A DNA stretch of 64,000 bases from Candidatus Paracaedibacteraceae bacterium (GTDB lineage: Bacteria; Pseudomonadota; Alphaproteobacteria; Paracaedibacterales; CAIOTO01). Position 1 is the stretch's first letter, and each line of letters opens with the position of its first letter. Under the pieces are notes generated by a model that did not search any database, had not been told where the DNA came from, and saw nothing but the letters and a program-made list of their open reading frames with translations. Below, piece after piece: positions 44,827-63,997 of the stretch. The stretch is from the NCBI GenBank assembly GCA_030694965.1, contig JAUYTZ010000018.1:81559-145558 (forward strand). Direction: 5' to 3'. Both the position numbers and the translations under genes were made by a program.

Positions 44827-46521
44827 TTATGATGCTGACTTTTTCTTCATAGCAGCACCAAGGATATCACCAAGGCTTGCTCCGCTATCAGAGGAACCAT
44901 AATCAGCAAGAACTTGCTTTTCTTCATCCATTTCACGTGCTTTGATTGATAAGTTGACGCGGCGTGTTGTCTTATCAACAGACAATACTTTTGCATCTAC
45001 TTTTTCGCCAAGTGCAAAACGATCTGGACGTTGTAAATCACGATCACGTGATAAATCGATTTTTTTGATTGTTCCGATAGAACCGCCTTCGATTTCAACA
45101 TCGATACCTTTGTCAGTAATTGCGCTAACGGTACCAGTTACAACAGAACCTTTTTTGAATGTTGCAATTGCTGATTCAATTGGATCATTAGTTAATTGCT
45201 TAACACCAAGGCTGATGCGTTCTTTTTCATGATCAACGTCAAGAACTTTTACTTGAATTGTTGCATTTTTAGCATATTCTTTTACAGCTTCTTCGCCAGA
45301 CTTTTCCCATGACAAATCAGATAAGTGAATCATACCATCAAGCGCATCATTAACACCCACAAACAAACCGAATTCAGTAATGTTTTTGATTGTTCCCTCA
45401 AGCACGCTTCCAACTGGATGCATATCAAGGAATTGCTTCCATGGGTTTTCTGTACCTTGCTTTAGGCCTAAGCTGATACGACGTTTTGTTGGGTCTACTT
45501 CAAGAACAACAACGTCAACTTCTTGGTCAATTGCTACGATTTTATTTGGGTGAACGTTTTTCTTTGTCCAGCTCATTTCAGTAACATAAATAAGACCTTC
45601 GATGTTTCCTTCGAGTTCAACGAAAGCACCGTAGTCAGCAATACTTGTAATTTTACCCTTGAGGCGAGTTCCTGGAGTAAACAAATCTTCTTTGCCTTTC
45701 CATGGATCTTCTTCAAGTTGCTTCATGCCAAGGCTGATACGTTGTGTTTCTTTATTGAAACGAATAACAACAACTTTTACAGTTTCACCGAGTTTCAAGA
45801 TGTCTGCTGGGTGATTAATACGACGCCATGAAATGTCAGTAACGTGCAATAGACCATCAACGCCACCTAGATCAATAAACGCACCATAATCAGTGATATT
45901 CTTAACGATACCGTCAAGAACTTGGTTTTCTTGAAGTTGCGAAACAAGTTCAGTGCGTGCTTCAGCGCGTGATTCCTCAAGAACAGAACGACGTGATACA
46001 ACGATATTGCTACGGCTCTTGTCCATTTTAAGAATTTTGAATGGTTGCACGATATTCATCAATGGTCCGATGTCACGTACTGGGCGAACATCAACTTGGC
46101 TACCTGGTAAGAATGCAACTGCGCCGTTCAGATCAACAGCAAAACCACCTTTAACTTTACCAAAAATAACACCGTTTACAAGCGTGCCTGATTCAGATGC
46201 TTTCTCAAGTTCGATCCAAGCTGCTTCGCGGCGTGCTTTTTCAACGCTGAGAGAAGCGTCGCCGTGGCGGTCTTCGATGCGTTCAACGAATACATCAATG
46301 GTGTCGCCAACTTTAACTTCTTCACCAAGACCACGTGCATTAATTTCTTTTAATGGGACTCGACCTTCTGATTTTAGGCCAACGTCAATAATTGCAATGT
46401 CTTTTTGAATCGCAACGATATAGCCTTTTACAACTTTGCCTTCAAAAGATAGGTTGCCTGACATTGAACTTTCAAGAAGTTCTGCAAAACTTTCTTTTTT
46501 TAATAATTCGTTCTGTTCCAT
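44827..46521 (-). CDS. rpsA: 30S ribosomal protein S1
   Basis: 564 aa with six S1-domain repeats (recurrent G.V..I..FGAFV-type blocks). Confidence 0.97.
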   Translation of the reverse strand: MEQNELLKKESFAELLESSMSGNLSFEGKVVKGYIVAIQKDIAIIDVGLKSEGRVPLKEINARGLGEEVKVGDTIDVFVERIEDRHGDASLSVEKARREAAWIELEKASESGTLVNGVIFGKVKGGFAVDLNGAVAFLPGSQVDVRPVRDIGPLMNIVQPFKILKMDKSRSNIVVSRRSVLEESRAEARTELVSQLQENQVLDGIVKNITDYGAFIDLGGVDGLLHVTDISWRRINHPADILKLGETVKVVVIRFNKETQRISLGMKQLEEDPWKGKEDLFTPGTRLKGKITSIADYGAFVELEGNIEGLIYVTEMSWTKKNVHPNKIVAIDQEVDVVVLEVDPTKRRISLGLKQGTENPWKQFLDMHPVGSVLEGTIKNITEFGLFVGVNDALDGMIHLSDLSWEKSGEEAVKEYAKNATIQVKVLDVDHEKERISLGVKQLTNDPIESAIATFKKGSVVTGTVSAITDKGIDVEIEGGSIGTIKKIDLSRDRDLQRPDRFALGEKVDAKVLSVDKTTRRVNLSIKAREMDEEKQVLADYGSSDSGASLGDILGAAMKKKSAS

Positions 46522-46772: not shown

Positions 46773-47441
46773 TTACTTCGCTGCAGGAGCTGCTACTGGC
46801 ATTGCAGCCGCTGGAGTTGTTGCTGAAGCAACTGGAGCTTCAACTTTTTTGTCAGCTTTTGGAGCTTCAATTTTTGCTGCATCTTTTGGAGCTTCAATTT
46901 TTGCTGCATCTTTTGGAGCTTCAATTTTTGCTGCGTCTTTTGGAGCTTCAATTTTTGCTGCGTCTTTTGGAGCATCAACTTTTGCTGCGTCTTTTGAAGA
47001 GTCAGCTTTTGGAGCATCAACTTTTACAGCATCAACTTTTGGTGCATGTGCTTTTTTGCTTTTTTTACCAGCTTTTTTGCTGTGCTTGTGTTCTTTGCAA
47101 TCTTTGCTACATTCTTTTATTTTGATTTCGCCTGGTACATAAACGTGACTAGCATCTGCGTTGAAGGCATCAGTAAGCTTGTTGTCGCGTGAGTGTCCGC
47201 TACCTTTTTTTGATTCTTTAGCGTGCTTGTCATCTTTTTTGACAGCATCTATTTTGCCGTGGTCAGCTACTGCTGGAACTGAAGCCATTACAGGTGCAGC
47301 ACCAATTACTGGGGCTGAGGCTGTAGGCATTGGAGCCATTACAGGTGCTGGAGCTGCTGGCATTGGAGCCGCAGCTGGTGCAGCGCAATAACCAGAAGTA
47401 GTTCCAATTAGTACTAGTACAAGATTTAACATTTTTTTCAT
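46773..47441 (-). CDS. secreted Ala/Pro- and Lys-rich tandem-repeat protein (hypothetical)
   Basis: 222 aa. Signal peptide MKKMLNLVLVLIGTTSGYCA, an AP-rich segment, a basic His/Lys segment, then 9-aa repeats K(I/V)(E/D)APKDAA. Confidence 0.65.
   Translation of the reverse strand: MKKMLNLVLVLIGTTSGYCAAPAAAPMPAAPAPVMAPMPTASAPVIGAAPVMASVPAVADHGKIDAVKKDDKHAKESKKGSGHSRDNKLTDAFNADASHVYVPGEIKIKECSKDCKEHKHSKKAGKKSKKAHAPKVDAVKVDAPKADSSKDAAKVDAPKDAAKIEAPKDAAKIEAPKDAAKIEAPKDAAKIEAPKADKKVEAPVASATTPAAAMPVAAPAAK
46857..46991. repeat. 27-bp in-frame tandem repeat (about 5 copies plus degenerate flanking copies)
   Basis: Unit ttttggagcttcaatttttgctgcatc repeats head-to-tail from 46857. Degenerate copies extend to about 46827 and 47045. 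Confidence 0.9.
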
Positions 47442-48832: not shown

Positions 48833-50737
48833 TTATTTTGCTACACAAGAATTATCGCCTCTTGCGCCTTTTGACCATTTGCACATCCCGCTACCTGCAT
48901 TCTTGCAAATTGACCTTGAGGTAATGCCTTCACATTTAAACTCGCAACCTGTTGGTTCTTTCCAAATGCAATGAGATGATCGTGTTTGACAATCATAGAG
49001 TTGTTTACCTTGGCAATTCTTTTGTGCGCTCATAATAAGATCTGGGTTATTCAAATCATAAATAGGTGGCCCCATGTCTTTTTCAGCTTTAAGCGCTGCC
49101 TTTACGGTTGATTGAGCTGCTTCATTAGCAAGCGCTGCTGCGCGTGCGGCCTGTAAAAGCGGTTCAACAAGTTTTTTTGCTTTATGCGCTGCATGCGCAG
49201 ATTCTTCAAGAGGAAGAACAGCTGCATGCTGTGCTGAGTTTGCTTTAGACATAGCATGGAATGCTTTTCTTAAATCACTTGCGTGAGTTGCTGCTTTTTG
49301 TTTGTCTGTTGCCGATGAGGTTTCATCGGATTGAATAATATTGTTTGATTCCGCAGCCAGTTTTGACGCCTGTTCAAGCGATTCCATTGTCTTTTGTTCT
49401 GATTTTTCAATATCTGATAAGAGTAATTGAGCGCCAATAGCAAGATCAGCTGCTTCTTCCACCGCTTTAGCGACGGCATTTGCTGCATATATAGCTGCTG
49501 CTGCTGCCTGGCGTGCTAACTTTTCTGCCATAAGCTTGTATTCAGTTAAATTTTCTGCAACTACATTGCGTTGTATTTGCATTTGTTCTTTTAAGTTTAT
49601 AGGTAATATTACTTTCTGCGCAGTGTCTGGCTTGGTTGTTGTTGATATGTTGTCTTTTGATTTTGCTATATCACGTTGAATAATTACACTGGTATTATTA
49701 TTTGCACGAGTTGTTGATGCTTTGGTTGCAGGTGTCATAGAGAGTGTTTCTGTAGTAGGCTTGATTGGCATTGCATCGGCGTTTAATGCTTTATTTATTG
49801 ATACTTGCTGTGTGTTGGTAGTTGCTGTGGTTGGTATTGTAGTAGGTGCGGATTGAACAGACGCAAGGGCAGGAATTGGGGCAGCCGGTTTTTTTTGAAA
49901 GTTTGAAAAGAGACTAGAAGCAATATTTTGAGCACTCGATGGTAGTTGAGGTATGGAAGATGCTACAGCTAGTAAGCTCTTTGAAGCGATAGGCTCTGTT
50001 TGTGTGGCTGCTGCTGTAGTAGAAGCATTTGTTTCACTGGAAGTCTTAGAGTCTGCAGAAGAAATTGGTGCTGCTTGAGGCGCTGCTGTAGTAGAAGCAT
50101 TTGTTTCATTGGAGGTCGCAGAGTCTGCAGAAGAAATTGGTGCTGCTTGAGGCGCTGCTGTAGTAGAAGCATTTGTTTCATTGGAGGTCGCAGAGTCTGT
50201 AGAAGAAGTTGGCATTGCCTGAGGCGCTGCTATAGTAGAAGCATTTGTTTCATTGAAGGTCACAGAGTCTGCAGAAGAAGTTGGCATTGCCTGAGGCACT
50301 GCTATAGTAGAAGCATTTGTTTCATTGGAAGTCGTAGAATCTGTAGAAGAAGCTGGCACTGCCTGAGGCGCTGCTGTAGTGGAAGTGTTTGTTTCATTGA
50401 AGGTCGCTGAATCTGCAGAAGAAGTTGGTGCCGTTTGAGGAGCTGCTGTAGTAGAAGTATTTGTTTCACTGGAGGTAGCAGAATCTGTAGAGGTCCTGTT
50501 TGTTATGGTTGGGATTTCAAAATCATCTATGGGTGCTTGCGTTTTAGTAGTCTCTGTGTTTGAATCCGTGTTAGTTGTGGATGTTGTATTTGATACAGCA
50601 AAGTCATCTACAGGTGCTGGACTTGAAGATGTGGTTGCTGCTGTTTCCTCTGTTGAGTAAGAATAGCTTATGTGAAAAATGACCGCTAAAAGCACATAAA
50701 GAATTTTGTTTTTATTTATAATTTTCATCACATTCAC
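48833..50737 (-). CDS. secreted mucin-like Ser/Thr-rich repeat protein with Ala-rich helical region and C-terminal 8-Cys module
   Basis: 634 aa. Signal/anchor KILYVLLAVIFHISYS, about 7 copies of the 24-aa repeat APQAxPxSSxDSxTxNETNASTxA, an Ala-rich helical middle, and 8 Cys in the last ~60 aa including an RGD. Confidence 0.7.
   Translation of the reverse strand: MNVMKIINKNKILYVLLAVIFHISYSYSTEETAATTSSSPAPVDDFAVSNTTSTTNTDSNTETTKTQAPIDDFEIPTITNRTSTDSATSSETNTSTTAAPQTAPTSSADSATFNETNTSTTAAPQAVPASSTDSTTSNETNASTIAVPQAMPTSSADSVTFNETNASTIAAPQAMPTSSTDSATSNETNASTTAAPQAAPISSADSATSNETNASTTAAPQAAPISSADSKTSSETNASTTAAATQTEPIASKSLLAVASSIPQLPSSAQNIASSLFSNFQKKPAAPIPALASVQSAPTTIPTTATTNTQQVSINKALNADAMPIKPTTETLSMTPATKASTTRANNNTSVIIQRDIAKSKDNISTTTKPDTAQKVILPINLKEQMQIQRNVVAENLTEYKLMAEKLARQAAAAAIYAANAVAKAVEEAADLAIGAQLLLSDIEKSEQKTMESLEQASKLAAESNNIIQSDETSSATDKQKAATHASDLRKAFHAMSKANSAQHAAVLPLEESAHAAHKAKKLVEPLLQAARAAALANEAAQSTVKAALKAEKDMGPPIYDLNNPDLIMSAQKNCQGKQLYDCQTRSSHCIWKEPTGCEFKCEGITSRSICKNAGSGMCKWSKGARGDNSCVAK
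50009..50494. repeat. 72-bp in-frame tandem repeat (about 7 copies)
   Basis: gagtctgcag recurs at 50049 and 50121, and as gagtctgtag at 50193 (period 72). Adjacent central copies are nearly identical. Confidence 0.9.
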
Positions 50738-57526: not shown

Positions 57527-57845
57527 CGTTTAGAAGCCATTGCTCATTCTTGCTATCTTTCTCCATACTAATGAAAGTGCTTTTAATTATCTAAAACTAT
57601 GTAAATAAACGCATTATTTTTTTTAAGGGTTGACATTTGGCGAAATAAAGCCCATGTATGTAGTGTGGGGTTAAGATAGCTTTTTTGCACGCACTTGCAT
57701 TTTTGAATGCAGGCCGTAAGAACTAATTACTAGTATCTTGTGGTTGTCATTGTGTTTGCCTTGATGTCCTATTGCTGACTCCGCTAGTTTAATTTAATTA
57801 ACTTAAACTATATTAACGCTAACACTATGAATAGGATTTCTACGA

Positions 57846-58052
57846 ATGGCAACCGGTACAGTAAAATGGTTTAATTCAACAAAAGGTTATGGCTTTATAA
57901 TGCCTGATGATAAAAGCAGCGACGTTTTTGTTCACATCAGTGCTCTTGAGCGCGCAGGCCTACAGTCACTCAATGATGGCCAAAAGCTTTCATATGAATT
58001 GGCTTCAAACAAAGGCAAAGTTTCAGCTGTTAACTTAAAGTTGGCTGACTAA
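57846..58052 (+). CDS. cspA: cold-shock protein (CspA family)
   Basis: 68 aa. [15 protein letters not shown] (RNP1) and VFVHIS (RNP2). Confidence 0.95.
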
Positions 58053-58063
58053 TCTTTACTATA

Positions 58064-58104
58064 CTGCTTGAGTGCCATTAAAGGCCTCGAGCAGCTTTAT
58101 TTAG
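58064..58104 (+). terminator. possible terminator of cspA
   Basis: ctgcttgag (58064-58072) pairs with ctcgagcag (58086-58094) with one G-U pair. Only a weak T-tract (ctttattt) follows. Confidence 0.4.
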
Positions 58105-58460
58105 AAATAAAAAAAAGACGGCATTAATTTTTATTGTGCCAGTTTAAGAATTTTTGAAAGCTATACGCTCATAAATTTAGTCAATGCTTCTTGAAACAGT
58201 CAAGGACCCCGACTAAGCCCCAGGGGCAACGCAGTAATCAATATTTTGTGAAATTGGTAAATAACCACTCTAAGTTAAAACTGCGACTGTTTTAAGTGCT
58301 TTTTGATTGATATAAGAATTTGGTGTTAAGTCAAATTTTATACAGTGAATTTAAAGTCACATTTTTTGTAATTTAGACGGATATACTTAAAGCCTTCTTT
58401 CAATGAAGCCCACTATAATTTGGGCTTATATATTTAACATTGGAAAAGAGAAAAAAAACA

Positions 58461-60437
58461 ATGACAGACTTTAAATCATTTAATTTACCAGAGGCGCTTG
58501 TGTCTGCTCTGGAACGTTTAGATATTACAACCCCAACACCAATCCAGGCTGAAGCTATTCCGTTAGCGCTTGCTGGTGATGATGTTTTAGGTTCGGCCCA
58601 AACGGGAACAGGCAAAACACTTGCTTACTTAATTCCTATTTGCGTTAATTTACTTCAGTCTTCTGAAAAAAGAGCACTTGTAATGACGCCAACACGCGAG
58701 CTTGCAATTCAAGTACGTGATATGGCTATGAAAATTTTATCAAAAAAACCACAATTTGAAGCAGCTTTGTTGATTGGCGGAGATCCGATGGGCAAGCAGC
58801 TTGGTCAACTTCGTCATCACCCACAACTTATAATTGGTACACCAGGTCGTATTAATGATCACTTGAACCGTGGTTCACTTGATTTGCGCTCAACAGAACT
58901 TCTTGTTTTGGATGAAACAGACCGCATGCTTGATATGGGCTTTAGTGAACAGCTAGAAACAATTATTGAAGTGATGCCGACTGAACGCCAAACGTTGATG
59001 TTCTCAGCAACAATGCCAGATAATATCACGCGTATTGCAAAGCGTTATTTGAAAAATCCAAAGCGTATTACAATTGGTTCAACAACACAGCCAGTAACGC
59101 ACATTAAGCAGGACGTTATCTTTACCTCACATTCTGAAAAGTTTGCACATTTGCTGCGTGAGCTTAATGAACGTGAAGGTTCAGTTATCGTTTTCGTTAA
59201 AACAAAAATTAGTTGTGAAGATTTAAAAGAACGTTTATGTGATGAGCAACACTCAGCTGATGCAATTCATGGCGACTTGCAACAACGTAAACGTGAACGT
59301 GTTGTAAAAGCATTCCGTGCGAACAAAAGCCGTATTATGGTTGCAACTGATATTGCTGCACGTGGCTTGGATGTTCCACATATTCGTCACGTAATTAACT
59401 ATGACTTACCACAATGTCCAGAAGATTATATCCACCGTATTGGCCGTACAGGTCGTGCGGGCGCTGAAGGTTCTGCACTTTGCTTGTTGGCTCCAGATGA
59501 TCGTCATAAGTGGCGTGCAATTAGCCAATTGATGAATCCAGGCGAGCCTGTTGATTTTCCAAAAGGCATGAAGCCTGAAGGTCGTTCTGAAGGTGGCCGC
59601 GGACGCGGTGGCTTTGGTGGTCGTTCAGGTGGCGGCGGATTTGGTGGTCGTTCAAGTGGCGGTGGCTTCGGCGGTCGTCCACGCAGCGGTGGTTCTGAAG
59701 GCCGTGGCTTTGGTGGAGATCGTCCGCGTGGTGAAGGCCGCGGAGAAGGTCGCAGCTTTGGTAGTGGTGAAGGTCGCAGCTTTGGCGGTGATCGTAAACC
59801 ATCAGGTGAAGGTCGTGGCTTTGGTGGTGATCGTCCGCGCACTCCATCAGGTGAAGGTCGTAGCTTCGGCGGTGATCGTGATCGTAAACCAAGTGGTGAA
59901 GGTCGTAGCTTCGGCGGTGATCGTGATCGTAAACCAAGTGGTGAAGGTCGTAGCTTCGGCGGTGATCGTAAACCATCAGGTGAAGGCCGTGGCTTTGGTG
60001 GTGATCGTCCGCGTACTCCATCAGGTGAAGGCCGTAGTTTTGGCGGTGATCGCAGACCATCAGGTGAAGGCCGCAGTTTTGGTGGGGATCGTGATCGTAA
60101 ACCAAGTGGTGAAGGCCGTAGTTTCGGTGGTGATCGCAAACCAAGTGGTGAAGGTCGTAGTTTTGGTGGGGACCGTAAACCATCCGGTGAAGGCCGCAGT
60201 TTCGGCGGTGATCGTAAACCATCCGGTGAAGGCCGTAGTTTCGGTGGTGATCGTAAACCATCCGGTGAAGGTCGTGGTTTCAGTGGCGACCGTGATCGTA
60301 AACCAAGCGGTGAAGGCCGTAGTTTTGGCGGTGATCGCAAACCATCCGGTGAAGGTCGCAGTTTTGGCGGCGGGGCGTTTACGCCAAAGCCTAAGTCAGG
60401 TTTTGATGCGCGAAAAGCATTTTCACATTCTAACTAA
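58461..60437 (+). CDS. DEAD-box ATP-dependent RNA helicase (RhlE-like) with long RGG/FGG tandem-repeat C-terminal tail
   Basis: Q motif TPTPIQ, motif I AQTGTGKT, Ia PTRELA, II DETD (variant of DEAD), III SAT, V ATDIAARGLD, VI HRIGRTGRAG. ATG at 58461 is preferred to TTG at 58440. Confidence 0.93.
   Translation: MTDFKSFNLPEALVSALERLDITTPTPIQAEAIPLALAGDDVLGSAQTGTGKTLAYLIPICVNLLQSSEKRALVMTPTRELAIQVRDMAMKILSKKPQFEAALLIGGDPMGKQLGQLRHHPQLIIGTPGRINDHLNRGSLDLRSTELLVLDETDRMLDMGFSEQLETIIEVMPTERQTLMFSATMPDNITRIAKRYLKNPKRITIGSTTQPVTHIKQDVIFTSHSEKFAHLLRELNEREGSVIVFVKTKISCEDLKERLCDEQHSADAIHGDLQQRKRERVVKAFRANKSRIMVATDIAARGLDVPHIRHVINYDLPQCPEDYIHRIGRTGRAGAEGSALCLLAPDDRHKWRAISQLMNPGEPVDFPKGMKPEGRSEGGRGRGGFGGRSGGGGFGGRSSGGGFGGRPRSGGSEGRGFGGDRPRGEGRGEGRSFGSGEGRSFGGDRKPSGEGRGFGGDRPRTPSGEGRSFGGDRDRKPSGEGRSFGGDRDRKPSGEGRSFGGDRKPSGEGRGFGGDRPRTPSGEGRSFGGDRRPSGEGRSFGGDRDRKPSGEGRSFGGDRKPSGEGRSFGGDRKPSGEGRSFGGDRKPSGEGRSFGGDRKPSGEGRGFSGDRDRKPSGEGRSFGGDRKPSGEGRSFGGGAFTPKPKSGFDARKAFSHSN
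59578..60375. repeat. in-frame 39/45-bp tandem repeats (about 16 units) encoding GEGR(S/G)FGGDR(DR)(K/T)PS
   Basis: Protein-level periodicity is near perfect. DNA copies differ mostly at synonymous positions (ggtcgtagcttcggcggt vs ggccgcagttttggtggg), except for one exact 45-bp duplication around 59858-59947. Confidence 0.9.
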
Positions 60438-60467
60438 AAATTAATTTAGTTTAAAAATCACTTTTAA

Positions 60468-60502
60468 TAGCTATCTGAAAAACTCAGGTAGCTATTTTTT
60501 TT
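60468..60502 (+). terminator. rho-independent terminator of the helicase gene
   Basis: 11-bp stem tagctatctga / tcaggtagcta (one G-U pair), 5-nt loop, T8 run. Confidence 0.85.
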
Positions 60503-60715: not shown

Positions 60716-63700
60716 ATGCGTAAAATGTTAACGCTAGCAGCGTTCAGTTTGAATTTTATAAGCCTTTTGAATGCCTCAACAGCACTTGATATAACCACTG
60801 CATTTTCACAAGCCAAGCTTCAAACGGCAAATTTTCAGAACAATACAACTGGGCCTGTTGATATTAATATATTAACGAATATTGTAACAATTTTAAATCC
60901 AGGTGAAGAAAAAGTAATTAATGCTGCTGGTGAAAATGGTTTTTTTATTTTAAATCAGGACAAATCTAAAAAAGTTAAAAAGGTGTTGCTGCATAATCTT
61001 GATAGAAAAGTGGCTTATAAAAAGATTACTCAAAAACATATTATTCATTTAGAAGGGGGAGAGAGTCACACGACCACTGTTTCTTTGCCTTCTTCTATAA
61101 ATGGGGCTAGCCTTGCTGATGCAAATCAAGCGTATCTAAATTGGTCTATCGACAATGGTCAATTCTCAGTTTTTGTATCTGGCGAAGATAATTTGTCAAT
61201 TTTAAGCTTAGATTTAGGTGTTAATTCTACACCCATGAATAAAGTCATTTTGGATTGCGCTGAATTTAAAACGCTTGAAGAGCAATTTGAGTCGCTTGGA
61301 GGAGAATTAATAAAAATTGATACTTCGTCAATGGCAGGCTACGTATATAACCCATGCATTATTAATTATAATGAAAAAATTTATATGACATTTCGTGTTC
61401 AAGAAGGTAGAAATAATCATTCATCGAATAGTAATATTTATTTTGCTGAAATTAGTAGCCAGTTTAAAGTTATAAAGAGCTATCCATTAATTGAAGGTAC
61501 TAAGCGCAATGCAGATGCACGTTTAAGTACTTATGCTTCAAAATTGTTTATTTCATACGTTCATGACTTTTATAAGTCAGATTATAGCTTTAGTAATTAC
61601 CACCCAAATGTTCACACTTCTTTTTTCAATCCTAACGAAACTATTCAACATACAATAAAGCCAGATATAGAAAATAATTGTACTTTTGATGCTAGGCAGA
61701 AAAATTGGCTTTTTTTTGAAAAAAGTAATAAGTTTTATATTATAGATAACATTGATCCTTTGTCTCTTTGGGACGCAACTAATAGTATAGAAAGACCGAC
61801 TAAGATCTTAGTAAAGGACAAAAAATTAAATAACTGGTGTTTTGGAGAGCCAAGAGCTTCTACAAATCCAATATTTATTGAAGAAATTGGCAAATGGCTC
61901 GTCTTGTTTCACTCATGTTTGACAAATTCAGACAATATTAGAAGTTACTTCAATGGTGCGTTATTATTTGATGATGATTTTGATATTACTCACTATACAA
62001 TGCTTCCAATTATAAGTTCAACATCGCAATACTCGCGAGGATTGTCTTATCCTCTCAATGCAATTATTCCCTATGGTTGCATTAGAAATAAGAATGACTT
62101 AGTTGTTAGTTTTGGTGTTAATGACGCTATTTCAGTTATAGGACGTTTTTCACTTAATAAGATACTTAATGCATTAAATCCGGTTAAAAACAATATCTTA
62201 TTTAATTTAAATAATAAGCAATCAGTGTATCCAAATGTATCTTTTAATATTGTTACATCAAAAGCGTTGCAAGGAGAACAAGGAGTAGTAGCTTGTTATG
62301 ATCGAGCATTAAAAGGGATTAAGCTTGGTTCTTCTAATGAAAATGAAATTATTTCAAAAGGAAAAGAAAATATTGATATTGTTTTAAGCTTTCATGGAGA
62401 AAGAATACATGATTTGATTCCAAATAATTATAGCTATTTAATTACTTCAGTAATAATGAATAATTTTTACCCTTACAATAGGGATGATGTGAAATTTCGA
62501 GCTAATTTGCAGCTTGGGAGCAATTCCTATTTAAAAGGAGTTTCAAAGTATGGAATTTTAAATAAATTCTTACTTGCACATCCCCGTACAAATTTTACTC
62601 CTTTAAATATTGATAATTTAAGTATCTTTTTTTGTGGAGGTGCTTGGGATAGTCGATACCCTAATTTATTAAATATTATGGATAACAAGCCATACTTTAA
62701 TTGGTACGGCCACCCTACTCACGGCATACCTGAAAGGAATTCGTATCGTGGCTTCAGCTCAATTCCGGCACAAACAATTAAGAAGCATGGCATTGCGCTT
62801 TTATTGCATGCTAAAGCTAATATTGAAAACTCAGAACCAGCATCAAAAATATTCGAAGCAGCTGCAGGAAGCGCTGTAATTATTTCTGATAAACTTACTT
62901 TCATAACGGAAGAGTTTGGTGATGCTGTATTTTATATTGATCAAAATGACCCTGAGGAAAAAATAGCACAAGATATTGATGGCTATTATCATTGGATTAT
63001 TACTCATCCTATTGAAGCGCAAGCAATGGCAAAAAAGGCGCATTCAATTTTTGTAGAAAGATTTACTTTAGAAGATCAACTCACTAGACTAATTAGTTTT
63101 CACCAAGAGAGCTTGCCTTTAGATGGTGAATCTATTTTATTGCCTCGAGCGCCCTTTAAAGTTCGTTCTTCTATAAATAAAAAATTTTTTGATCAGGCAA
63201 TAAATATGTTATTACCAACATCTTTGTCTATAGAAGCGAGTGATTATAACAATTTCAAACCAGTTTTTTTTGTTAAATATTTAAAAAAGGATTCTGTTTT
63301 TCCAGATGTGCCTGAATATATGGTACGGACTTCGAAAATAACTGAAATTATGGAGAACATGGCAGGTTCTAGTTGTGTAGCGCATGCTTTAGATTACGCT
63401 CCTTTGATTGCAAAAAAAATGGAACTAGAATTAGGAAGTGGCTTTTATTTTTCTGGAGTAGAAACTTTAAATTATTCTGATGTTTCTTTTTCTTGGGATG
63501 GAAATAAGTTCAAAATTTATTTTAATATAAATTCTTATGAAGAAAAATATGCGACGCAAAAATCAAAAGATCCTCTTTCAAGTTCTTTAGCGGATGCGCC
63601 AATTAAGTATTTTAGAAATGTCGACTTTATTGAGGGTTTTTCACGTTTAGAAGATTGGGGTGTGTGGACAGAAAGTAATCAATGCAAAATTAGAATAATT

Positions 63701-63997
63701 ATGAGTTCATTGGAATTAAATAAAAAATATGAGATTTCTTTTAAAATGAGTAGTTATACACCTAAAAAAGATTCATGCGTTGATTTGCAATTATTAGTAA
63801 ATAATGTAGTTGTAAACCAATCAAGATTTACAAAAGATTCAAACATGCAGACTTTATCAGTCTTTTATACTAAAGAAGTAGAAAAAGATTTAGTCATAAA
63901 TTTTTTGTTGAATGGGATTTCTTCGCCTTTTGAGAATAATGAAAATATGGATTATCGTAGATTAGGTGTTTCAATTAGGGACATTATTATTAAATAA
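60716..63997 (+). CDS. large Sec-signal multidomain protein with GT-B (CgeB/Glyco_trans_1_2-like) glycosyltransferase half and beta-rich flanking domains
   Basis: 1093 aa. Signal peptide MRKMLTLAAFSLNFISLLNASTA. Residues ~190-480 are beta-propeller-like (YNPCIINYNEKIYMTFRV, QKNWLFFEKSNKFYIID). Residues ~640-790 are GT1-like (SKIFEAAAGSAVIISD...AQAMAKKAHSIFVERFTLEDQL). The C-terminal ~130 aa are beta-sandwich-like (GFSRLEDWGVWTES...DYRRLGVSIRDIII). Confidence 0.7.
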   Translation: MRKMLTLAAFSLNFISLLNASTALDITTAFSQAKLQTANFQNNTTGPVDINILTNIVTILNPGEEKVINAAGENGFFILNQDKSKKVKKVLLHNLDRKVAYKKITQKHIIHLEGGESHTTTVSLPSSINGASLADANQAYLNWSIDNGQFSVFVSGEDNLSILSLDLGVNSTPMNKVILDCAEFKTLEEQFESLGGELIKIDTSSMAGYVYNPCIINYNEKIYMTFRVQEGRNNHSSNSNIYFAEISSQFKVIKSYPLIEGTKRNADARLSTYASKLFISYVHDFYKSDYSFSNYHPNVHTSFFNPNETIQHTIKPDIENNCTFDARQKNWLFFEKSNKFYIIDNIDPLSLWDATNSIERPTKILVKDKKLNNWCFGEPRASTNPIFIEEIGKWLVLFHSCLTNSDNIRSYFNGALLFDDDFDITHYTMLPIISSTSQYSRGLSYPLNAIIPYGCIRNKNDLVVSFGVNDAISVIGRFSLNKILNALNPVKNNILFNLNNKQSVYPNVSFNIVTSKALQGEQGVVACYDRALKGIKLGSSNENEIISKGKENIDIVLSFHGERIHDLIPNNYSYLITSVIMNNFYPYNRDDVKFRANLQLGSNSYLKGVSKYGILNKFLLAHPRTNFTPLNIDNLSIFFCGGAWDSRYPNLLNIMDNKPYFNWYGHPTHGIPERNSYRGFSSIPAQTIKKHGIALLLHAKANIENSEPASKIFEAAAGSAVIISDKLTFITEEFGDAVFYIDQNDPEEKIAQDIDGYYHWIITHPIEAQAMAKKAHSIFVERFTLEDQLTRLISFHQESLPLDGESILLPRAPFKVRSSINKKFFDQAINMLLPTSLSIEASDYNNFKPVFFVKYLKKDSVFPDVPEYMVRTSKITEIMENMAGSSCVAHALDYAPLIAKKMELELGSGFYFSGVETLNYSDVSFSWDGNKFKIYFNINSYEEKYATQKSKDPLSSSLADAPIKYFRNVDFIEGFSRLEDWGVWTESNQCKIRIIMSSLELNKKYEISFKMSSYTPKKDSCVDLQLLVNNVVVNQSRFTKDSNMQTLSVFYTKEVEKDLVINFLLNGISSPFENNENMDYRRLGVSIRDIIIK

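Follow-up and report, generated by a model that had tools for sequence, protein, structure and literature searches.

A long FGG/GR tandem-repeat tail on a DEAD-box RNA helicase encoded beside a cold-shock-domain gene in a Candidatus Paracaedibacteraceae bacterium

Why should a bacterial RNA helicase end in a tail of almost 300 residues made up largely of nearly perfect repeats? The question is raised by a gene in a metagenome-assembled genome (MAG) of a Candidatus Paracaedibacteraceae bacterium (GenBank assembly GCA_030694965.1), located in a stretch of 64,000 nucleotides of contig JAUYTZ010000018.1 (positions 81,559 to 145,558, forward strand) that we call the window and whose own numbering is used throughout. 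An original prediction, made from the DNA letters without database searches, had described a normal DEAD-box helicase core followed by an RGG/FGG repeat tail, and had proposed this tail as a candidate driver of RNA condensates or of cold adaptation. We compared the gene with its relatives and with helicases described in the literature, which confirmed the observation and supported its interpretation in part. The reading that we favor, with a probability of roughly 0.55 and by analogy with those helicases, is that the tail would act as a multivalent, non-specific RNA-tethering and condensate-prone appendage on a helicase coupled to a cold-shock protein (csp) gene.

The gene and its parts are collected in Table 1. 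The tail begins with a glycine/arginine-rich (GAR)-like block, at a position where close relatives conserve a similar GGGFGGGGRSGGFGG block, and continues with the main array, in which units of the pattern GEGR(S/G)FGGDR(DR)(K/T)PS are joined by KPS, DRKPS or PRTPS linkers. The earlier estimate of about 16 units over 59578-60375 proved right; peptide parsing gave 17 starts of the type "GEGR[SG]F," with full units of 13 to 16 amino acids (aa). The tail as a whole begins at about 59574. Tandem Repeats Finder (TRF) detected a 39/45-nucleotide array at 59766-60370 (14.6 copies, score 459; periods of 39, 45, and 84). The exact 45-bp duplication reported earlier was recovered as well (59850-59894 is identical to 59895-59939), while all other units are distinct at the DNA level, and no two of the seven with the exact peptide GEGRSFGGDRKPS have the same DNA. 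Behind the array, the tails of relatives finish with a K/F/P-rich cap comparable to that of the window (e.g., KGFGAPKSKPAYSDKK), so the reading frame is kept to the end of the tail; this was the case in every relative examined when orthologous tails were compared.

Table 1. Coordinates of the helicase gene, its tail, and the adjoining features in the window
Feature	Position	Strand	Basis
Cold-shock-domain protein gene (68 aa), conserved upstream partner	57846..58052	+	Pfam CSD, E 6.8e-24; NCBIfam CspE/CspA-like models below cut-offs
csp-helicase intergenic leader, 408 nt	58053..58460	+	Alignment of five relatives, 66% mean column identity, long invariant runs
Complete helicase coding sequence	58461..60437	+	658 aa plus stop; open reading frame list and NCBI match
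Two-RecA helicase core, aa 1-371	58461..59573	+	Pfam, motif scan, AlphaFold2 (pLDDT ~85-98)
Disordered C-terminal tail, 287 aa	59574..60434	+	Composition, charge, Uversky plot, AlphaFold2
Proximal GAR-like block, three GG(G)FGGRS units, with the sole RGG	59605..59692	+	TRF period 27, 3.3 copies
Main tandem array, 17 GEGR(S/G)FGGDR units (15 full, 2 partial)	59694..60371	+	Peptide parsing, TRF
Two identical 45-bp units (5 and 6; GEGRSFGGDRDRKPS twice), most recent array duplication	59850..59939	+	Identical DNA
Non-repeat basic C-terminal end, GAFTPKPKSGFDARKAFSHSN	60372..60434	+	Sequence
Terminator-like hairpin and T run, 3' of the helicase stop	60466..60496	+	Consensus scan: 13-pair stem, then TTTTTTATGT; pattern match only

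The composition of the tail is restricted to 12 amino acid types (among them 94 G, 49 R, 38 S, 23 F, 21 P, 20 E, 20 D, and 14 K), with no aliphatic residues. Its motif counts do not bear out the description as an RGG tail, since a single RGG stands against 18 FGG, 24 GR, and 8 RG (27 FG/GF and 32 RG/GR dipeptides). When checked against the eukaryotic-type RGG/GAR box, the composition is GAR-like, but one RGG tripeptide falls short of the strict motif definition. The tail is best described as an FGG plus GR/DR polyampholyte rather than as a canonical RGG tail. It carries a net charge of +23 (isoelectric point of 11.3, fraction of charged residues of 0.36, net charge per residue of +0.08, kappa of ~0.05). 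In the charge-hydropathy (Uversky) plot it falls on the disordered side of the boundary, and AlphaFold2 (AF2), run with a 45-sequence alignment, gave residues 374-658 a predicted local distance difference test (pLDDT) score below 50 and no secondary structure. Searched alone against Pfam, the tail matched no family even at E<=10. It is therefore predicted to be an intrinsically disordered, net-basic extension without a folded accessory domain.

At the DNA level, GC rises to 0.55-0.61 over the tail versus 0.39 for the window, a consequence of the Gly, Arg, and Pro codons that its amino acid content calls for. The codon preferences of the tail (CGT, GGT, CCA) equal those of the core, which argues that it is native, and foreign or recently acquired DNA was rejected as its source. 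Stop-free open reading frames (ORFs) of 278, 246, and 283 aa overlap the repeat at 59504..60340 (-), 59521..60261 (-), and 59593..60444 (+), with a risk of being called as genes by mistake. We rejected them as genes since the helicase frame alone follows on from the conserved core and is retained in relatives; they are stop-free by-products of the repeat.

Synonymous (pS) and nonsynonymous (pN) differences among the repeat units, counted by the Nei-Gojobori method, amounted to a pS of 0.43 and a pN of 0.03-0.07 (pN/pS of 0.06-0.17), and 9 of the 13 shared codon columns vary only synonymously. The orthologous cores of the window and its relatives gave a pS of 0.53-0.63 and a pN/pS of 0.18. The within-array pS approaches that of the cores, and therefore the units are almost as silently diverged as orthologues of genera-level relatives. 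Purifying selection acts on the repeat peptide, with a constraint no weaker than that on the enzyme core, and the array is old and not a product of recent slippage, the 45-bp duplicate being its only recent part. Both conclusions had been drawn in the original prediction from the synonymous differences among most copies, and the counts support them.

The array is also still dynamic, as had been suggested on the basis of the 45-bp duplicate. In a pair of near-identical strains, the relatives P0012 and P0013 share one and the same 393-aa core, and in-frame repeat indels of 9 and 50 aa are all that separates them; the loci L003 and L005, with a core pN of 0.009, have tails of 175 and 220 aa. These differences are either copy-number polymorphism or assembly collapse, a caveat that applies equally to the array of the window. 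The tail grows and shrinks by in-frame duplication and deletion of units. The motif GEGR[SG][FY]GGDR is common to the window and to L001 and L004, which have only 8 units and PRTPS or PRGDRPAG linkers; the window has expanded the KPS-linker unit type. Nearest-neighbor distances between units of one genome and between units of different genomes showed no clear sign that concerted evolution had strongly homogenized them in recent times.

The same observations could be explained if the extreme length and copy number were partly an assembly artefact or the outcome of neutral runaway expansion; the true tail would then be as short as those of the relatives, or the additional units would contribute no function. 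The indels between P0012 and P0013 and the eight GEGR units of close relatives are in line with this, and the copy number of the window array comes from a single MAG contig, for which two exact/degenerate DNA pattern scans of metagenome contigs found no independent assembly (the contig index has no entry for the exact window protein, nor for P0003). We nevertheless regard this explanation as quite unlikely. The units can be told apart at synonymous sites, which allows short-read assembly to put most of them in order, and only 90 bp are exactly repeated. An expansion artefact would yield identical units, not diverged ones, and the pN/pS values reject neutrality of the peptide. Furthermore, two samples (L001 and L002) yielded identical assemblies of the relative P0005.

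The enzyme that bears the tail belongs to the DEAD-box family within the superfamily 2 (SF2) RNA helicases. It lies in a 665-codon frame of the ORF list (58440..60437, +), within which the ATG at 58461 is the best-supported start; the resulting protein of 658 aa has 100% identity to P0001, annotated by NCBI as [quoted passage not shown] The protein opens directly with the Q motif region, with no signal sequence evident. Pfam recognized DEAD (PF00270) at aa 33-198 (E 1.5e-48) and Helicase_C (PF00271) at aa 234-341 (E 1.7e-34), both well above the gathering score, and a motif scan (patterns I AxTGoGKT, Ia PTRELA, Ib TPGR, II D-E-A-D, III SAT, and VI HRIGRTGR) located motifs Q, I, Ia, Ib, II, III, IV, V, and VI. 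The nearest solved structures to the core are those of Geobacillus CshA (5ivl) and Thermus Hera (4kbf). The core is complete, but not entirely the "normal" one of the original prediction, since motif II reads DETD and not DEAD (58902-58913, aa 148-154). Among 175 retrieved homologues, DETD was found in 111, DEAD in 35, DEMD in 11, DEVD in 9, and DESD in 3; DETD is a DExD variant of the motif and does not represent a loss.

For subfamily assignment, NCBIfam equivalog and exception models were scored against their curated cut-offs, and none of the equivalog cut-offs was reached, the models for RhlE, RhlE1/2, SrmB, DeaD, RhlB, DbpA, CshA, and Psychrobacter CsdA all scoring below. The RhlE types were rejected by a wide gap (PRK10590, 295 versus 743 bits; RhlE1, 317 versus 750; RhlE2, 315 versus 925), and so was DeaD/CsdA (PRK11634, 300 versus 989 bits), the tail having no Pfam DbpA-type RNA-binding domain. 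The best-scoring named model, NF053636 (Psychrobacter Psyc_1082-type CsdA), was rejected too, at 396 versus 890 bits; its match spans aa 4-504, reaching into the G/R-rich tail, and the model is only 512 positions long. A literature search for Psyc_1082 found nothing. Helicases of the DbpA/YxiN type have a C-terminal domain resembling an RNA recognition motif (RRM) that binds hairpin 92 of the 23S rRNA. Here, only the core was matched (PRK11776, 375 versus 524 bits, profile positions 3-362 of 460) and that RNA-binding domain is absent. For CshA, the degradosome helicase of Firmicutes, the match (NF053631, 394 versus 646 bits) ends at aa 358, equivalent to position 356 of a 434-position profile, and AF2 placed no folded element beyond that residue, where the C-terminal dimerization domain of CshA would sit. 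The accessory domains of DbpA, DeaD, and CshA are therefore all absent, and the helicase belongs to an unnamed, csp-linked DETD clade, widespread and mostly alphaproteobacterial, that should not be called RhlE.

To place the tail among its relatives, we searched with the core only, which removes any bias from the tail, and chose 80 species-representative loci by core similarity alone. All of the 14 closest relatives listed (76-86% core identity) have tails, of 118-224 aa. Among those at 84-86% identity, the tails are rich in G, R, and F and their net charge is about +14 to +23; the aromatic fraction in close relatives is ~7-8%. Tails are shorter in the next 105 relatives (59-65% identity), with a median of 50 aa; 28 reach at least 100 aa and 6 at least 200 aa. 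Across the 80 species-level loci, the median is 52 aa. A length of 100 aa or more is seen in 24 tails, one of 200 aa or more in 11, and one of 280 aa or more in 4, namely those of Micavibrio aeruginosavorus (284), a Berkiellales MAG (301), L025 (287), and L035 (290); by the same measure, the tail of the window has 286 aa. There is no correlation between tail length and the genomic GC of the flanks (Spearman rho of 0.05, P of 0.65).

Regular arrays recur as well. The tail of a Berkiella MAG repeats (SEGSSERPYRAK) ~17 times and that of Ca. Paracaedibacter symbiosus repeats (SGGFGDKKRSGGFGEERS) ~7 times, the Micavibrio tail is built of DRPF/DRPR repeats, and that of P0025 of FGDRREG(N)GGRP(A/S). 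In 31 of the 119 tails of at least 60 aa, half or more of the length lies in 4-mers recurring at least three times, a measure by which the window ranks first, tied with P0018. The notion that such a long and regular array is unusual in bacteria can therefore not be upheld; the tail of the window is the long, regular extreme of a recurrent family trait and no singular oddity. Distant lineages have different repeat units with a common grammar of F/Y, R, and D/E and a similar net charge. In long tails of the family, the aromatic fraction (0.03-0.12, mostly 0.06-0.11) and the net charge (about +17 to +31) vary rather little, and short ones (20-60 aa) are purely basic (+9 to +17). Selection keeps the unit peptide, the aromatic fraction, and the net charge rather than a particular repeat sequence, a family pattern that suggests selection on tail composition over sequence, as has been much discussed for eukaryotic intrinsically disordered regions (IDRs).

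The second constant of the locus is its upstream neighbor. A same-strand cold-shock-domain (CSD) gene directly precedes the helicase in the window, in L001-L005, and in the P0004 contig, that is, in 6 of 6 close relatives, with differing outer flanks. The arrangement recurs at 33 of the 80 species-level loci, Berkiella and Micavibrio among them. This pairing supports functional coupling of an RNA chaperone and the helicase and lends weight to the proposed link to cold. The gene rpmB (L28) lies just upstream of csp, and a TTGACA-type promoter-like sequence was noticed near 57630. In the intergenic leader, a hairpin just past the csp stop (~58063-58095) is followed by two blocks, one conserved (~58110-58180) and one highly conserved (~58205-58262), the latter containing two small hairpins. 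The leader may represent a promoter plus a long 5' untranslated region (UTR) or attenuator of the helicase. A long regulatory 5' UTR has been reported for csdA (PMC3093544; bioRxiv 10.1101/2021.03.08.434349). RNAalifold predicted small hairpins in the conserved leader with almost no covariation, and the claim of a conserved RNA structure was dropped, what is conserved being the sequence. Rfam gave a weak match to the cspA thermoregulator at 57717-58096 (29.4 bits versus a gathering score of 78, E 1.5e-4), overlapping the 5' leader and coding sequence of csp.

We also asked where else this type of repeat occurs. A phmmer search with the tail only, against 1.84 billion representatives (E<=0.001), returned 75 matches, of which 74 (P0177-P0250) were scanned for Pfam domains. 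The largest groups among them had RNA-related domains, namely S4 plus pseudouridine synthase domains (5-6), DEAD helicases (5), NusB/RsmB (3), and Rho (1), together with the eukaryotic-type Pcf11 RFEGP repeats (4), eIF3a (1), and Nucleoporin_FG (1). Tandem F/Y-G-D-R-K repeats form N-terminal extensions of the 16S rRNA methyltransferase RsmB (P0177) and of S4 plus pseudouridine synthases (P0179, P0182, and P0185); the N terminus of P0179 repeats ERKSFGGDRDRKPYG, close to GRSFGGDRDRKPSG of the window. Among P0177, P0179, P0182, P0185, and P0184, a similar repeat was also seen as the C-terminal tail of an unrelated DEAD helicase. The distribution fits a generic, portable RNA-binding appendage.

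These similarly tailed rRNA-modifying enzymes invite a more specific proposal, in which the tail would be a GAR-like targeting domain for ribosome biogenesis, acting together with them on nascent rRNA or pre-ribosomes as an analogue of nucleolar GAR domains. The models with which the core scores best, those of the DbpA, CshA, and CsdA types, have a link to ribosome assembly, and rpmB stands nearby. We find the proposal doubtful. The RsmB and RluB-like proteins with such repeats are anonymous representatives whose lineage is not established, and convergent low complexity could account for the likeness, and the rRNA-binding domain of DbpA is lacking; in any case, targeting of this kind overlaps with RNA tethering rather than excluding it. 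A broader version is likewise tentative. According to it, csp-linked DETD helicases and RsmB and RluB-like enzymes would repeatedly and independently have grown sticker-spacer tails of aromatic, Arg, and acidic residues, which would co-assemble on nascent or cold-trapped RNA into an RNA-remodeling and ribosome-biogenesis condensate, again analogous to nucleolar GAR domains, with copy number as an evolvable tuning knob.

The eukaryotic-type domains in the same search (Pcf11 RFEGP repeats in 4 of 74 matches, Nucleoporin_FG in 1 of 74), and record titles that describe Paracaedibacteraceae and Berkiella as amoeba symbionts, bring to mind an exported, eukaryote-mimicking effector, an FG/RG-rich helicase that would engage ribonucleoprotein granules or nucleoporin-like FG networks of the amoeba. 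This is very improbable, given that long-tailed helicases of the clade are also found in the predator Micavibrio and in numerous Alphaproteobacteria that have not been cultured, that the N terminus lacks an evident signal sequence, and that gene order with csp and core-like codon usage point to a housekeeping role in the cytoplasm.

The reading of the tail as an RNA tether can now be stated as a mechanism. A two-RecA core unwinds RNA duplexes locally and non-processively. The ~17 evenly spaced Phe-Gly-Gly and Arg "stickers," with G/S/P/D/E spacers between them, would form a multivalent, sequence-non-specific RNA tether holding the core on large structured RNAs, such as rRNA precursors and mRNAs, and would thereby raise the efficiency of unwinding. 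At high concentrations of protein and RNA, the tail may promote RNA-dependent condensates. Effects of this kind have been demonstrated for the C-terminal IDRs of Pseudomonas aeruginosa RhlE1/RhlE2, and the earlier proposal of condensates or cold adaptation is a plausible one. Together, the helicase and the adjacent Csp would make up an RNA-remodeling module, most important when RNA is over-stabilized, for example, in the cold. Tethering, condensates, and a role of the helicase in the cold are what we infer by analogy with the systems compared below.

Several points weigh against this reading. The well-mixed charges of the tail and its ~14% of acidic residues argue against strong self-coacervation, and RNA would probably be required for any phase separation. 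The core can function without the long array, because the orthologue in L020 (Candidatus Caedibacter acanthamoebae CP008936.1), with 364 aa and 60% core identity, has no C-terminal tail, and no csp upstream either, and because the family median is ~50 aa. As the core reaches no NCBIfam equivalog cut-off, transfer of function from RhlE, RhlE1/2, CsdA, CshA, or DbpA is by analogy and not by orthology. The link to cold is drawn from gene order and from the sub-threshold match to the cspA thermoregulator. Finally, deletion of the IDR left the in vitro condensation of Caulobacter RhlE unchanged (PMC9882336), so a helicase IDR is not always the driver of a condensate.

If the RNA-tethering mechanism holds, the locus would offer a natural model of the way in which the number of repeats and the distance between stickers determine RNA binding and phase behavior in a bacterial enzyme, its assets being 17 near-identical units of 13-15 aa, 12 amino acid types, and relatives with 0, 8, 17, or entirely different units. 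The csp-helicase pair and its conserved leader also provide an entry point to the regulation of cold shock in intracellular Alphaproteobacteria, which have been little studied.

Elsewhere in the window, two further ORFs with repeats were observed. The first (48833-50737, -; 634 aa) has a hydrophobic, signal-like N terminus, a Cys-rich C terminus, and, at 50010-50491, 6.7 copies of a 72-nt (24-aa) Ser/Thr/Ala-rich unit; from its sequence, the product is probably a secreted or surface protein. The second (46773-47441, -; 222 aa), which adjoins rpsA (ribosomal protein S1, 44827-46521, minus strand), also has a hydrophobic, signal-like N terminus, and a 27-nt repeat at 46833-47055 encodes (APKDAAKIE)n. 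Downstream of the helicase, a 1093-aa ORF (60716-63997, +) gave sub-threshold Pfam matches only (GH130-like, glycosyltransferase-like, and DUF7024).

Among known systems, bacterial DEAD-box proteins have long been noted for variable, basic C termini (PMC3093544), and long disordered ones have already been characterized by experiment. In Pseudomonas aeruginosa RhlE2, a basic 255-residue C-terminal IDR enhances RNA binding and unwinding, drives liquid-liquid phase separation, and binds RNase E (PMC11260450, PMC8266600). Both RhlE1 and RhlE2 are needed for growth in the cold (PMC11260450), and their tails have been described as clade specific and fast evolving (PMC11260450, PMC8266600). Like RhlE2, the helicase of the window combines the RecA core with a long basic disordered C-terminal extension and no folded accessory domain. 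The two differ in that the RhlE2 tail consists of poly-Q and G/E-rich stretches instead of a regular FGG/GR tandem array, in the DETD of motif II, and in the binding of RNase E, which is known for RhlE2 only. Our literature search found no description of the FGG/GR tandem-repeat architecture or of the csp-linked clade.

In Caulobacter crescentus, the IDR helicases RhlE and DEAD form RNA-stimulated condensates sensitive to salt and RNase and associated with bacterial ribonucleoprotein (BR) bodies, and deletion of the DEAD IDR reduces condensates (PMC9882336), while RhlE is cold induced and joins the degradosome (PMC5472812). They are alphaproteobacterial IDR helicases like that of the window, compared here by their published description, in which no tandem FGG array appears.

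These systems also suggest that the tail might be mainly a protein-docking module, for RNase E and the RNA degradosome or for another partner, with RNA tethering and condensation being secondary. The C-terminal extension of RhlE2 is necessary and sufficient for the interaction with RNase E (PMC8266600, PMC11260450), RNase E condensates strongly recruit Caulobacter RhlE, which is a degradosome member in the cold (PMC9882336, PMC5472812), and an RNase E/G gene lies ~4.5 kb upstream in one relative (L003). Nonetheless, we consider docking an unlikely main function. The window has no RNase E gene next to the helicase, and the interaction between RhlE2 and RNase E is itself RNA mediated or RNA stabilized (PMC11260450). 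Moreover, the repeat units differ completely between lineages, with a conserved composition, as is to be expected of non-specific binding by charges and aromatic residues more than of a defined motif.

Returning to the tail as an RNA tether, a bacterial precedent for the repeats themselves is found in the C-terminal region of E. coli DeaD, with five R/E/G-rich GGERRGGGR nonamers (PMC3093544). DeaD and the helicase of the window share a cold-shock context and a GAR-like tandem repeat in the C-terminal region, short in DeaD. DeaD carries the DbpA-type RNA-binding domain absent here, and the array of the window is ~3 times more numerous, contains Phe, and is far more regular. E. coli DeaD is said to form condensates, reportedly in work by Hondele et al. 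from 2019.

Disordered regions rich in Gly, Arg, and aromatic residues are typical of DDX4/Vasa, LAF-1, Ded1/DDX3, and nucleolar GAR domains. The eukaryotic RGG/FG helicases resemble that of the window in having a disordered extension on a DEAD-box core, as in Ded1 (PMC8315639), and an Arg-aromatic "sticker" grammar. Their cores are not its orthologues (DDX3X and Vasa score ~240 bits versus 305 for bacterial CshA), and the tail of the window differs from theirs in being C-terminal, with one RGG, well-mixed charges rather than charge blocks, and near-identical units of 13-15 aa. The class of condensate-forming, IDR-tailed DEAD-box helicases is thus already established in bacteria, and the tail of the window reveals no new kind of system; it is an extreme example of a known theme.

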